Numbered from the stretch's first letter, positions 3,370-27,472 are shown. The stretch: DNA of 32,000 nucleotides from Candidatus Saccharimonadota bacterium (GCA_963677765.1 OY782392.1:390001-422000); one strand, 5' to 3'. Program-made: numbers and translations. Notes: generated from the letters alone by a model not told the origin.

Positions 3370-3927
3370 ATGATAAATTCTATAAATAATCATAATAAAT
3401 GAAGCAACTCTATAAATAGAAAAACTATAATTGATAGTGTAAAAAATGATACAAAAGAAGCAGTATATAAAACAACTGACCTATGACTAAATTCTTTTAG
3501 AATAACTCATAGAGATATTTTTGATAAAATATGATGATTAAATATTAAAAAACATTATATATTAGCTCAAGAGATAGTAAAAAATGAAAATGTAACACTA
3601 GATGAAATAAAATGATTAATAAAAGATAGAAATATAGACTCTAATATTAGAATGGAGATAGTTTTAGCTATGTATGAAAACAAAATAAAAGTAGATTTAG
3701 AAACATTTTCATCTTTGAAAAGTAACTTAGTTAGTATTCATGAATGAAATGATTGAGTATATCAAGCTAATACTGAAAGTTATATATATACACTATTTAT
3801 GTTTAGAAATGGTAAAATATTTAAATGATATATAGATAAAATAGAAAAAGATGAAGAAAAAGAATGAGATTTTATATACCATATTTGATGATATAAAAAA
3901 ATAAAATCATCTTGAGAATCAATATAA
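3370..3927 (+). CDS. Hypothetical protein (185 aa)
   Basis: ATG 3370 to TAA 3925-3927, 186 codons with many in-frame TGA. Followed by a bidirectional terminator. No motif recognised. Confidence 0.6.
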
Positions 3928-3958
3928 AAAAGAAGCAATTAAAAATTGCTTCTTTTTT
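3926..3958. terminator. Bidirectional terminator between convergent genes
   Basis: agaagcaatt (3931-3940) pairs with aattgcttct (3944-3953), flanked by an A-run on the left and a T-run on the right. Confidence 0.65.
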
Positions 3959-24890: not shown

Positions 24891-25094
24891 TTAGTCTTTA
24901 TAGTGTATAGCATTAACTGGACAAGCAGCTATAGCATCATCTATTCCATCGGCATTAGAAGTATCCATTCAATCACGAGCAAAAGCTTTACCTTCCTCAT
25001 CTAGATCAAAGACTTCTCCACAAATAGCTACACATGCGCTACAACCTATACAAGTTTCATCAACATATGGAGTTTTTACATCACCTTGCGACAT
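24891..25094 (-). CDS. Small 4Fe-4S ferredoxin (67 aa)
   Basis: 68 codons. MSQGDVKTPYVDETCIGCSACVAICGEVFDLDEEGKA..AIAACPVNAIHYKD (CxxCxxC...CP cluster motif). Confidence 0.9.
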
Positions 25095-25143: not shown

Positions 25144-25199
25144 AAAAAAAATACAAGCTTAAAATTATAAATGATTATAATTTTCCTGCTTGTATTTTT
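25144..25199 (-). terminator. Long hairpin + T8, acting as terminator or attenuator on the minus strand
   Basis: Outer stem atacaagc (25151-25158) pairs with gcttgtat (25188-25195). Inner stem aaaattataa (25161-25170) pairs with ttataatttt (25175-25184). On the minus strand a run of 8 T follows (plus-strand A 25144-25151). It lies between the structured element and the ferredoxin gene. Confidence 0.6.
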
Positions 25200-25221
25200 A
25201 AATATAGTTATCCATATTTAT

Positions 25222-25376
25222 GGTCAGTCAAAGTGTTTGTGTTCCTTATTCAGGAATAATTATTAAGGGCCCATCTATCATTTTTGAAAAAAGATATTCA
25301 ATTCTCAGCAAATAGATTACCAAGAACCCCTAAAGGCTTTAACATGTGTAAGGAAAAATTAGATTGACCTGCCACC
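25222..25376. ncRNA. Candidate structured RNA, either an sRNA or a cis-regulatory leader; class and strand unresolved
   Basis: This is the only non-coding stretch with visibly raised G+C. Nested complementary pairs: 25222-25229/25362-25369, 25242-25248/25349-25355, 25263-25271/25335-25342 and 25273-25278/25312-25317, plus an inner hairpin. The short ORFs here use G/C-ending codons atypical for this genome. It is flanked by a promoter-like site and a hairpin-T8 on the minus strand. Confidence 0.45.
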
Positions 25377-25394
25377 TATAAAATAGACATAATC

Positions 25395-25422
25395 ATTATA
25401 ATTCTTTGTAAATATTTGTAAA
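25395..25422 (-). promoter_or_regulatory. sigma70-like promoter reading into the structured element (minus strand)
   Basis: Minus strand: TTTACA (complement of 25417-25422), 16-nt spacer, TATAAT (complement of 25395-25400). Confidence 0.4.
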
Positions 25423-25433
25423 ATTTATATAAT
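25406..25433 (+). promoter_or_regulatory. sigma70-like promoter of ybeY
   Basis: TTGTAA (25406-25411), 16-nt spacer, TATAAT (25428-25433). It interleaves with the divergent minus-strand promoter. Confidence 0.45.
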
Positions 25434-25469
25434 AAAAAAAGATAATATTTATTAATAATTAATAATAAA

Positions 25470-25910
25470 ATGTTTAGCTATAAACTAATAAACAAGCCAA
25501 AATTTAATATAAATACAATTCATATTGACTCTATATTTAAAAGTATTTCTAATATAGTAGACATAAAACAAAAATGACTACTAAATATAGTATTTTTAGA
25601 TGATGATAGTATAAAAAATTTGAACAAAAACTATAGAAATATAGATAAAACTACGGATGTTTTAAGTTTTCATTATTTCGAAGATTTTTCAAATATTGAT
25701 GAAAATGAAACTGCATGAGAGATAGTGTTATCTGAATCAAAAATAATGAGTCAATGAAAAGAATATTGACTATGAGAAGAGCATGAATTTTACAAACTTA
25801 TAATACATTCTGTCCTTCATATATTATGATATGATCATGAAGAAGATGATGAATATATAGTTATGAATAACTTAGAAAACAAGATATACAAAGAAGTATT
25901 TGAAAAATAA
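25470..25910 (+). CDS. ybeY: rRNA maturation endoribonuclease YbeY (146 aa)
   Basis: 147 codons. TDVLSFHYF and the zinc motif HSVLHILGYDHE. Confidence 0.92.
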
Positions 25911-25964: not shown

Positions 25965-26381
25965 ATGCAATATAAAATACCTGTACAAATAGAAAATGAA
26001 GATCCTATATTGTTATGACTTAGTGGTAGGCAACTTGCAATAATAATGATATGAGGTTGAATATGATATTCTATATTTCAATCATTAGCTCCAGTTTTAT
26101 GAAATACTGTAGCACTATTCCCTGCTTGAATAATTTTAGCTATAGCAGTATGAATAGCTGTAATAAAAGTTTATGAAATGACTTTTTTAAGGCTAGTTTT
26201 AGCTTTTATAAGATACAAAGTAAACTTAGACACTAGAAAATGGACAAAATGAGTAGATAGTTTTTCTGCAATGGATATTTGATTTATTAGTTATAATGAA
26301 AATAAAGCAGAACAAAAAATAGATACTAAATCTAAAATAGATAAAATAAAAGATTTAGAAGAAAACTTAAATAAAATTTAA
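25965..26381 (+). CDS. PrgI/VirB3-like small membrane protein (138 aa)
   Basis: 139 codons. MQYKIPVQIENEDPILLGLSGRQLAIIMIGGGIGYSIF.. matches the PrgI-family N-terminal pattern (xxVPxxIxxEDKIxxGLTxRQL, then two TM helices). Confidence 0.65.
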
Positions 26382-26399
26382 AATATAAATTAAAAAAAG

Positions 26400-27107
26400 G
26401 TGGCTGTAAAAACAAATAAAAAAGATCATCCTGATAGTTCAACTCAAAGATATTTGCCTTTTTCATGAATAAAAGAAAATATCATGATAATGAAGGATAA
26501 TAGTGCTAGATTAGTAATGAAATGTTCAACAATAAATTTTTTATTAAAAAATACTGATGAGCAAGATGCTATAATAATGAGTTTTCAGAGGTTTTTAAAT
26601 TCTTTAGACTTTCCTATTCAAATAATAGTAAGATCAAAAAAATTAGATATTGATAGTTATTTATCAAGATTAAATGATAAAGCTTTGAATCAAACAAATC
26701 CTTTGTTACAAAATCAAACTTATGAATATATTGAATACTTAAGAAAACTAATTGAAGTTGCTCAAATAATGAAAAAAGAATTTTATGTTGTTATACCATT
26801 TGATATGGAAGCAAATAAAAGTGTAAAAGATGATACTTTTCTATGAGTATTTCAAAGTTTTTGGAAATCAATAAACCAATGACAAGATATTTCTAATATA
26901 AAAACTCAATTAAGAAATTTTTCAAAACTAAAAAAAGGATTAAACTGAAGAGCTAATTGAGTCAAAACAAGTCTTGAAAATATATGAATAAAAGCTGAAG
27001 CTTTGACAAAACAAGAATTAGTAAAATTTTTGACAGATTACTATAATCCAAAACTTGATTCTTTGGAAACTATTTGAGATATAGAAAATTATAATATAAC
27101 AAAATAA
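26400..27107 (+). CDS. VirB4/TraC-like N-terminal domain protein without ATPase domain (235 aa)
   Basis: 236 codons. GTG start (frame opens after TAA 26391-26393; aaagg precedes it). TQRYLPFSGIKENIMIMKDNSARLVMKCSTINFLLKNTDEQDAIIMSFQRFLNSLDFPIQIIVRSKKLDIDSYL resembles the N-terminus of Gram-positive/CPR VirB4-type conjugation ATPases. It ends at TAA 27105-27107 with no Walker A. Confidence 0.55.
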
Positions 27108-27109
27108 TA

Positions 27110-27472
27110 ATGAAAAAATATTTTTTTTATGCACTAGCATTTATTTCTAGTTTTAATTATTCATATGCAAATAATCCTAATACATGACTATTATGATGAT
27201 CATGAATTTCTAGTGATGATATAAGAAACTGAAATATTCACACGGAACATATTCCATGAATAATAAAATGAATTATAGACTTTTGAATATGAATAGCATG
27301 AACGGTTGCAGTTATATTTATTATAATTTGAGCATATCAAGTACTTCTATGATCATTAGAACAAGACAAATCTAAATGAAAAAATACTATTTTTATGGCA
27401 ATTATGTGATTTATAATAGCAAGTTTAGCTTGGTTTATTATAAGATTAATAATAGATAATTTTTGAGGATAA
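27110..27472 (+). CDS. T4SS pilin-like (TrbC/VirB2-type) small membrane protein (120 aa)
   Basis: 121 codons. Signal peptide MKKYFFYALAFISSFNYSYA. Then IPGIIKGIIDFGIGIAGTVAVIFIIIGAYQVLLGS..KSKGKNTIFMAIMGFIIASLAWFIIRLI: two TM helices separated by a short basic loop. Confidence 0.6.

Follow-up and report, generated by a model that had tools for sequence, protein, structure and literature searches.

What is encoded between the ferredoxin gene and ybeY in a 32,000-nucleotide (nt) stretch of DNA assigned to Candidatus Saccharimonadota bacterium (GCA_963677765.1 OY782392.1:390001-422000; the whole stretch is called the window here)? An initial annotation had described a G+C-elevated, nested rod in this spacer and proposed either a leader of the ferredoxin gene or an independent small RNA; its view that the element is a structured noncoding RNA with its own promoter and terminator stands. 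The locus holds a minus-strand gene with defined ends, a covarying secondary structure, a conserved alternative hairpin, and a distribution independent of ferredoxin. It is best explained as a stand-alone small RNA gene of the abundant type, specific to the Gracilibacteria, a lineage of the Candidate Phyla Radiation (CPR) that reads UGA as glycine. It is at least a new, well-supported RNA family, and most likely a lineage-specific variant of the 6S kind.

The RNA gene occupies part of the 375-nt spacer from ferredoxin (minus strand) to ybeY (plus strand). The elevated G+C on which the element was first noticed holds: it is 0.28–0.32 over ~25175–25400, compared with 0.10–0.13 in flanking intergenic DNA, in a window of 23% G+C. 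The extent originally given, 25222–25376, does not hold; the RNA measures 179 nt and runs from 25388 to 25210:

25210–25388, minus strand: rod-shaped structured RNA, 5′ end paired with 3′ end, 179 nt (covariance-model match 165.6 bits, E = 5.5e-33)

Folding energies differ between the strands, with the minus-strand core at −40.7 kcal/mol (z = −2.07) and the plus strand at −26.2 (z = +0.65). For the whole predicted transcript (25388–25140, minus strand), the fold reaches z = −5.09, and within this full-length transcript the rod and the terminator hairpin fold independently. The initial annotation had left the strand undecided. Several G–U pairs are invariant in 52/52 aligned homologs and would be A–C mismatches on the plus strand; the strand is therefore minus, and folding energy together with these pairs rules out a plus-strand RNA. 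RNAfold applied to the full transcript of the window favors a local hairpin (AUAAAUAU/AUAUUUAU-like, ~25199–25218) that competes with the outermost helix; this hairpin could play a part in 3′ processing or be a fold artefact.

Homologs were collected from contigs encoding YbeY relatives. All of these contigs keep the layout of ferredoxin on the minus strand, a gap of 300–400 nt, and ybeY on the plus strand, and their aligned spacers have conserved ends and a middle that varies in compensating fashion. A covariance model (R1) built from eight sequences, all syntenic homologs, matched 20/22 Gracilibacteria ybeY loci in GTDB genomes. A degenerate-pattern scan of metagenomes matched 91 stretches, and among the 80 loci listed the model matched 46; the other 34 had no covariance-model support and are chance pattern matches. 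Four further loci with the RNA, including one in the complete genome CP060226.1, were reached via divergent ferredoxin. Among ybeY loci of other phyla (332 kb in all) the model had no match, and two Gracilibacteria loci with YbeY at 57–60% identity (L014 and L016) had no copy of the RNA beside ybeY with the covariance-model filters off.

Covariation across these homologs carries the identification of the gene. The alignment (A6) comprises 52 distinct sequences, taken from genomes and metagenomes of Gracilibacteria, with RNA lengths of 170–227 nt (median 173), and was compared with controls in which pairing partners were slid by 1–3 columns and with 500 shuffles. Standard pairs fill 90.1% of cells (46–60% in slid controls), and double changes occur at 31 of the 47 pairs. 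Double-compensatory cells number 324 (39–77 in slid controls) and the covariation score is 0.432 (0.07–0.11 in controls); 0/500 shuffles reach the observed values. The nested rod that the initial annotation drew from a single sequence, proposing covariation in related genomes as the check, is thus real. The RNA gene is conserved; covariation across the 52 distinct homologs decides the matter.

The fold is an unbranched rod whose arm lengths vary by only a few nt across A6. Helices 1–6 are paired in 83–95% of cells and are supported by covariation. From the outside in, its parts are as follows:

25380–25388, minus strand: helix 1, 5′ strand GUCUAUUUU, paired with 25210–25218; 91.4% of cells paired, double changes at 5/9 pairs
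25210–25218, minus strand: helix 1, 3′ strand AAUAUGGAU, the 3′ end of the mature-size RNA
25364–25376, minus strand: closing stem, 5′ strand (GGUGGCAGGUCAA), paired with 25222–25231
25222–25231, minus strand: closing stem, 3′ strand (UUGACUGACC), covarying in A6
25356–25363, minus strand: internal loop (8 × 10), 5′ side (UCUAAUUU), U-rich, conserved in A6
25232–25241, minus strand: internal loop, 3′ side (CACAAACACU); family consensus a near-invariant AUACAAA
25349–25355, minus strand: helix 6, 5′ strand UUCCUUA, next to the central bubble and followed by an invariant CA; 95.3% of cells paired
25242–25248, minus strand: helix 6, 3′ strand UAAGGAA, the switching strand, with 25349–25355 or the local 25252–25256 as partner
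25334–25348, minus strand: central bubble, 5′ strand (CACAUGUUAAAGCCU), proposed template strand and putative start region of a product RNA (pRNA)
25249–25262, minus strand: central bubble, 3′ strand (UAAUUAUUCCUGAA), holding the hairpin arm UUCCU (25252–25256)
25263–25333, minus strand: apical stem; the pairs of helices 8–10 all covary
25324–25333 with 25263–25272, minus strand: helix 8
25318–25323, minus strand: bulge UUGGUA; in the family a conserved 6-nt bulge, CUURGUA
25311–25317 with 25273–25279, minus strand: helices 9/10
25302–25306 with 25286–25290, minus strand: helix 11, GAGAA/UUUUC; GAG/UUC pairs invariant
25291–25301, minus strand: apical loop, UUAAUU-like in the family

This structure revises the rod drawn originally. 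The outer helix GUCUAUUUU/AAUAUGGAU, in which U–A, C–G, and U–G pairs are invariant, had been overlooked, and the helix taken as outermost, ggtcagtc/gattgacc, was mis-registered. Covariation backs GUCAA (25368–25364) with UUGAC (25231–25227), plus GGU/ACC: all five GUCAA/UUGAC pairs covary, with 92.7% of cells paired, and the GG/CC pairs are found in 51/52 and 41/52 sequences. Inside the closing stem, AUACAAA (alignment columns 262–268) is identical in at least 50/52 sequences. The ttcctta/taaggaa helix was correctly recognized and lay one base off, its actual positions being 25242–25248 and 25349–25355; a C–G to U–A double change occurs there in 10 sequences. The central bubble has medians of 17 nt (5′) and 16 nt (3′) and contains two weak pairs (65% paired). 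The main helix proposed beyond it, ttaagggcc/ggctttaa, is not conserved and lacks covariation support. The pairing of ttaaggg (25263–25269) with cccctaa (25327–25333), by contrast listed merely as an alternative, is conserved, and its description as a mere alternative falls. The apical loop has 6 nt in 46/52 sequences and up to 63 nt in the rest, and nearly all length variation resides there. Inserts of 5 to 57 nt occur in the apical loop only (L012, L008, L002, L015, and L004), the largest giving an RNA of 227 nt (L012, 2193–2419).

The strand that closes helix 6 on its 3′ side has a second possible partner. In 48/52 sequences it can pair instead with the 3′ bubble strand, in a hairpin of ≥4 base pairs (bp); the local ttcct/aggaa alternative suggested earlier (25242–25246 with 25252–25256) is real and conserved. 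The mean free energy of this hairpin is −4.0 kcal/mol, with a mean z of −2.6 against shuffled bubble strands; the position of its arm and the size of its loop (3–10 nt) drift across lineages. Helix 6 itself changes from UUCCUU/AAGGAA to UUUCUU/AAGAAA or UCUCUU/AAGAGA in 10 sequences, and most local arms change together with these variants. Three segments co-evolve, and this sequence pattern therefore indicates selection for two mutually exclusive states. When nt 24–43 of the window RNA were held single-stranded, the minimum-free-energy fold contained a 5-bp hairpin; the same computation on Escherichia coli ssrS, with its pRNA template held single-stranded, gave a hairpin of 9 bp in the corresponding part of its 3′ central region (the ssrS control sequence was verified against 5,426 genomes). 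The switch pairing sits in the middle of the rod and overlaps no terminator.

A Shine-Dalgarno/anti-Shine-Dalgarno reading of AAGGAA/UUCCUU was rejected: the helix covaries to AAGAAA and AAGAGA, ferredoxin and ybeY in the window have no Shine-Dalgarno sequence, and the tiny open reading frames (ORFs) downstream differ among homologs.

The signals of a complete transcription unit frame the rod:

25417–25422, minus strand: −35 hexamer TTTACA, scoring 11/12 jointly with the −10 hexamer
25395–25400, minus strand: −10 hexamer TATAAT (promoter score 11/12); predicted start at G 25388, 7 nt downstream
25144–25200, minus strand: intrinsic terminator, an AU-rich hairpin of 12 + 10 bp (25200–25147) followed by U8, with an A-tract on its 5′ side (−18.8 kcal/mol, z = −6.1)

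Promoter and terminator had both been read correctly in the initial annotation: TTTACA-16-TATAAT at 25422–25395, and a hairpin with eight U that spans 25200–25147 and runs to 25144. In 29 of the 52 distinct homologs, TATAAT occupies −12 to −7, counted from model position 1, which makes the G of GUCU the probable first nucleotide of the RNA; −35-like sequences (TTGCA, TTTACA, or TTGAA) recur among homologs at the same spacing. At the other end, a U-run directly follows helix 1 in 15/52 homologs, and most others, the window included, have a separate A-tract/hairpin/U-tract terminator ~10 nt farther downstream. The terminator hairpin shows compensatory changes among relatives. Just upstream of the RNA in L009 (~3914–3935) and in L159 stands an apparent second copy of its initial ~10 nt (GUCUAGUU), in the form AAGTCTAGTTAAAA|GTCTAGTTTAAT, with the −10 box farther off; the RNA 5′ end may be extended or alternative in these lineages.

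Known RNA families did not account for the element, as the initial annotation had anticipated, at either gathering or permissive thresholds. The 4,227 families of Rfam 15 gave no match to the RNA, either with the whole window at gathering score or with a 196-nt region at E ≤ 10. Regions of 801 and 196 nt at E ≤ 10, and six homologous loci, returned only junk fragments of microRNA, small nucleolar RNA, and internal ribosome entry site models. ARAGORN found no transfer RNA or transfer-messenger RNA. The signal recognition particle (SRP) RNA (4.5S) was rejected on its apical end, which here is a variable loop (UUAAUU-like, inserts ≤57 nt) with no domain IV motif or GNRA-type tetraloop, and there was no Rfam SRP match.

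What the RNA does is best approached through its shape. 6S RNA serves bacteria as a means of blocking RNA polymerase. It is a rod of ~200 nt whose imperfect helices flank a central bulge in mimicry of an open promoter (PMC12005410); its parts are an outer closing stem, a large 5′-central bulge in which pRNA synthesis starts, an apical stem ending in a terminal loop, and, facing the bulge, a hairpin (PMC8414754). In E. coli, pRNA synthesis leads to an extended hairpin in the 3′ central bulge and thereby to release of the polymerase (PMC4793215, PMC12005410). The initial annotation had set 6S aside. It was right that no sequence consensus matches, and the dismissal did not survive comparison of the architecture and hairpin switch, which are as described for 6S. 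We lean, with moderate confidence, toward reading the RNA as a divergent 6S-like RNA polymerase decoy of a CPR lineage, one that would work like 6S RNA and is not a proven member of that family.

Under this 6S-like reading, the rod would mimic an open promoter. In it, the upstream (−35 side) duplex would be represented by the apical stem and its invariant GAG/UUC hairpin, the melted region by the ~17 × 16-nt central bubble, and the downstream duplex by helix 6 with the remaining closing stem. The sigma70–RNA polymerase holoenzyme is predicted to bind the RNA and to become sequestered. The pRNA template would comprise the bubble's 5′ strand together with the U-rich segment (25356–25363) that precedes helix 6, with a putative start region around the invariant UUACA. 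The predicted pRNA, 5′-GUAAGGAAAAAUU-3′, is complementary to 25343–25363, and pRNA reads from this segment would begin 5′-GUAAGGAAAA. As it grows, the pRNA would invade helix 6; the displaced UAAGGAA could then pair with the UUCCU arm of the 3′ bubble, and the resulting hairpin would eject the polymerase. Polymerase binding, pRNA synthesis, the start site, and the mimicry of −35 and −10 elements are thus all proposed by analogy with 6S RNA. The fixed arm lengths, and an invariant apical hairpin ~24 bp-equivalents from the bubble, may reflect a ruler requirement matching the distance from −35 to −10. The 3′ bubble strand has CUAAAU or UAUAAA beside the apical stem; read as a literal −10 hexamer, this match is too loose and is not used as evidence.

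Several observations weigh against the 6S-like reading. The RNA has no sequence or covariance-model similarity to 6S RNA, Rfam RF00013 included, and the Rfam 6S models gave no match at gathering score or at E ≤ 10 in the window and six homologous loci. The search for a canonical 6S RNA covered the window and loci with flanks of up to 10 kb rather than whole Gracilibacteria genomes. The large, conserved 8 × 10 internal loop of the closing stem is unusual for a 6S RNA, and to our knowledge neither the near-invariant AUACAAA loop nor the GAG/UUC apical hairpin is a 6S signature. We infer the single-stranded state of the AU-rich bubble solely from the absence of covariation there. In a divergent subgroup, finally, the ferredoxin ATG follows the U-run of the RNA by 22–32 nt, making the RNA physically a 5′ leader.

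Two other readings do without a 6S function. One, possible but clearly tentative, is that the RNA is no homolog of 6S RNA and represents a new class of rod-shaped riboregulator confined to code-25 Gracilibacteria, in which AUACAAA, CUURGUA, and GAG/UUC would bind a lineage-specific partner and the alternative pairing would be a new toggle-type switch. Such a toggle could possibly couple the RNA's own termination to ferredoxin read-through or to the overlapping divergent ybeY promoter. A related proposal, which we hold to be somewhat unlikely, makes the RNA a new class of small RNA, trans-acting or protein-binding, confined to Gracilibacteria and functionally unrelated to 6S: a scaffold for a partner reading the invariant unpaired motifs (AUACAAA, the CUURGUA bulge, and the GAG/UUC hairpin), with the switch between helix 6 and the 3′ hairpin serving the same function. 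The missing Rfam family is as expected on this account, and several near-invariant unpaired motifs, typical of protein or ligand contacts, are not known from 6S RNAs; the RNA also always lies beside a conserved cluster of PrgI-like, TraC-like, and pilin genes. No candidate partner gene, however, co-varies with the RNA in presence, all listed architectural hallmarks of 6S are there, the competing hairpin included, and no other mechanism accounts for a dedicated local partner for the displaced bubble-proximal strand.

The genes on either side of the RNA are as follows:

24891–25094, minus strand: 4Fe-4S ferredoxin gene, 67 residues, with in-frame UGA (Gly); Pfam Fer4_13, E = 1.2e-13; ATG at 25094, downstream of the RNA on the same strand
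25470–25910, plus strand: ybeY, divergent; Pfam YbeY, E = 3.7e-32; start codon 82 nt from the RNA 5′ end

The ferredoxin ORF (24891–25094, minus strand) falls into two pieces under translation table 11 and forms one frame of 67 residues under table 25, and ybeY shows the same break and read-through, caused by in-frame TGA codons. UGA, a sense codon in this window, is therefore glycine, as in the Gracilibacteria/SR1 code. Genes are under-called here by ORF tools that use table 11. The closest homologs of the window's YbeY are all Candidatus Gracilibacteria.

Upstream, the distance from the RNA 5′ end to the ybeY ATG is 81–83 nt in most homologs. A plus-strand promoter-like site for ybeY (TTGTAA-16-TATAAT, 25406–25433) is interleaved back to back with the RNA promoter (25395–25440). 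Interleaving and constant spacing together suggest that the two divergent promoters, of the RNA and of ybeY, compete for RNA polymerase.

Directly after ybeY stands a conserved cluster encoding PrgI-like, TraC-like, type IV secretion system pilin-like, and small membrane proteins (25965–27472 in the window; also L002, L004, L006–L009, and L181). A type IV pilin-like (N_methyl) gene lies beyond ferredoxin, on the opposite side from the PrgI/TraC-like cluster, and the RNA stays between the two even where ybeY or ferredoxin is missing.

The initial annotation placed the ferredoxin ATG downstream of the terminator, where it is indeed found (25094), and from this order the RNA could be a cis-acting leader or attenuator of ferredoxin: the closing helix with a U-run, or the hairpin with U8, would terminate transcription, and a signal sensed by the rod would set read-through. 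We consider this improbable. The RNA does resemble terminating riboswitch leaders in being a structured, G+C-elevated element upstream of a gene and followed by a hairpin and U-run, and in its conserved unpaired nucleotides and conserved alternative pairing. Ferredoxin lies on the same strand 56–167 nt downstream in most loci. In the divergent subgroup, the 22–32 nt between U-run and ATG leave no room for a promoter of its own, so ferredoxin must be transcribed there by read-through. Unlike such leaders, the RNA persists without the downstream gene, its alternative pairing is internal to the rod and apart from a terminator that folds separately, and no riboswitch or aptamer family matches; in the window, moreover, a promoter-like TTTAAA-16-TATAAT (25146–25119) stands between terminator and ferredoxin. 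On these grounds the attenuating-leader or riboswitch option of the initial annotation is not supported.

The loci without ferredoxin are specific. In L129/L155, L111/L149, and L153, the RNA and its U-run are followed by a pilin-like gene with its own promoter-like site, and a convergent gene lies downstream in L157 and L152. Because these five distinct loci keep an intact RNA without downstream ferredoxin, the RNA is not an obligate ferredoxin leader. Three further loci (L100, L167, and L181) have the RNA without ybeY upstream. Where ferredoxin does lie just downstream, as in many genomes, it is probably cotranscribed by read-through. With its neighbors dispensable and read-through implied in the divergent subgroup, the RNA gene is autonomous and often stands first in a dicistronic unit. 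Divergent lineages (L100, L108, L017, L102, L005, L128, and L122) have a ferredoxin with a 10-residue N-terminal extension (MTLLTEEQ...).

That the locus is a small protein gene (55 residues on the minus strand or 45 on the plus strand, read in code 25), or that the fold arose by chance in an AT-rich spacer, is barely credible: frames of 55 and 45 codons are open in the window, but reading frames are conserved on neither strand, homologs have stops in all frames, with a longest open stretch of median ~36 codons on either strand and lengths in all three classes modulo 3, a Pfam search of the short ORFs at the locus gave no match, and the substitutions are compensatory at the RNA level. The initial annotation had noted that the short ORFs here, which are not conserved among homologs, use codons ending in G or C that are foreign to this genome.

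CPR bacteria have tiny genomes with few recognizable regulators, and this family of 52 sequences is invisible to Rfam-based annotation. Computational surveys often miss 6S RNA in reduced genomes (PMC4779614), and our literature search found no paper linking 6S RNA or any structured small RNA with Gracilibacteria, CPR, or Patescibacteria. Should the RNA be a 6S analog, sequestration of RNA polymerase by an RNA decoy would extend into the CPR, and the pRNA-driven release hairpin would have been conserved despite total loss of sequence similarity. Should it not be, its conserved conformational switch would belong to a new class of RNA. In both cases, a covariance model is ready for use, and the specific pRNA sequence is a sharp experimental prediction.

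Among known systems, Ms1 RNA of Actinobacteria, rod-like and structurally related to 6S, sets a precedent for RNA-polymerase-binding rods outside RF00013 (PMC9130861, PMC11077062). Ms1 differs in binding core RNA polymerase rather than holoenzyme, and it has no sequence relationship with the Gracilibacteria RNA. It is also much longer (~300 nt), and we know of no report of a pRNA-driven release switch for it. 6S-Flavo is a clade-specific 6S-like RNA that needs its own covariance model, beyond the reach of RF00013; it belongs to a different clade and differs in sequence, and Rfam 15 as a whole gave no match here.

The 6S-1 and 6S-2 RNAs of Bacillus subtilis share the overall architecture and the hairpin opposite the 5′ central bulge (PMC8414754), and release is by pRNA-induced rearrangement (PMC4793215). 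B. subtilis 6S-1 reportedly rearranges through a central-bulge-collapse helix instead of an E. coli-type hairpin (PMC12005410), whereas the Gracilibacteria RNA follows the hairpin logic of the E. coli type. We saw no conserved complementarity for a collapse helix of the 6S-1 kind in the Gracilibacteria RNA.

Set beside 6S RNA (SsrS) itself, the RNA stands apart in its ~30% G+C and its tight synteny with ybeY and ferredoxin. Its order with ferredoxin resembles that of E. coli ssrS, which is followed by ygfA on the same strand. The two RNAs agree in length class (170–227 nt here), in the rod with paired ends, and in the order of parts, with an imperfect closing stem leading via a large central bubble to an apical stem whose terminal loop varies, as well as in a sigma70-type promoter. 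They also agree in the 3′-bubble hairpin extended by a strand freed from the bubble-proximal helix, which has 9 bp in E. coli and 5–7 bp here, and every structural feature listed in descriptions of 6S RNA is present in the Gracilibacteria RNA.

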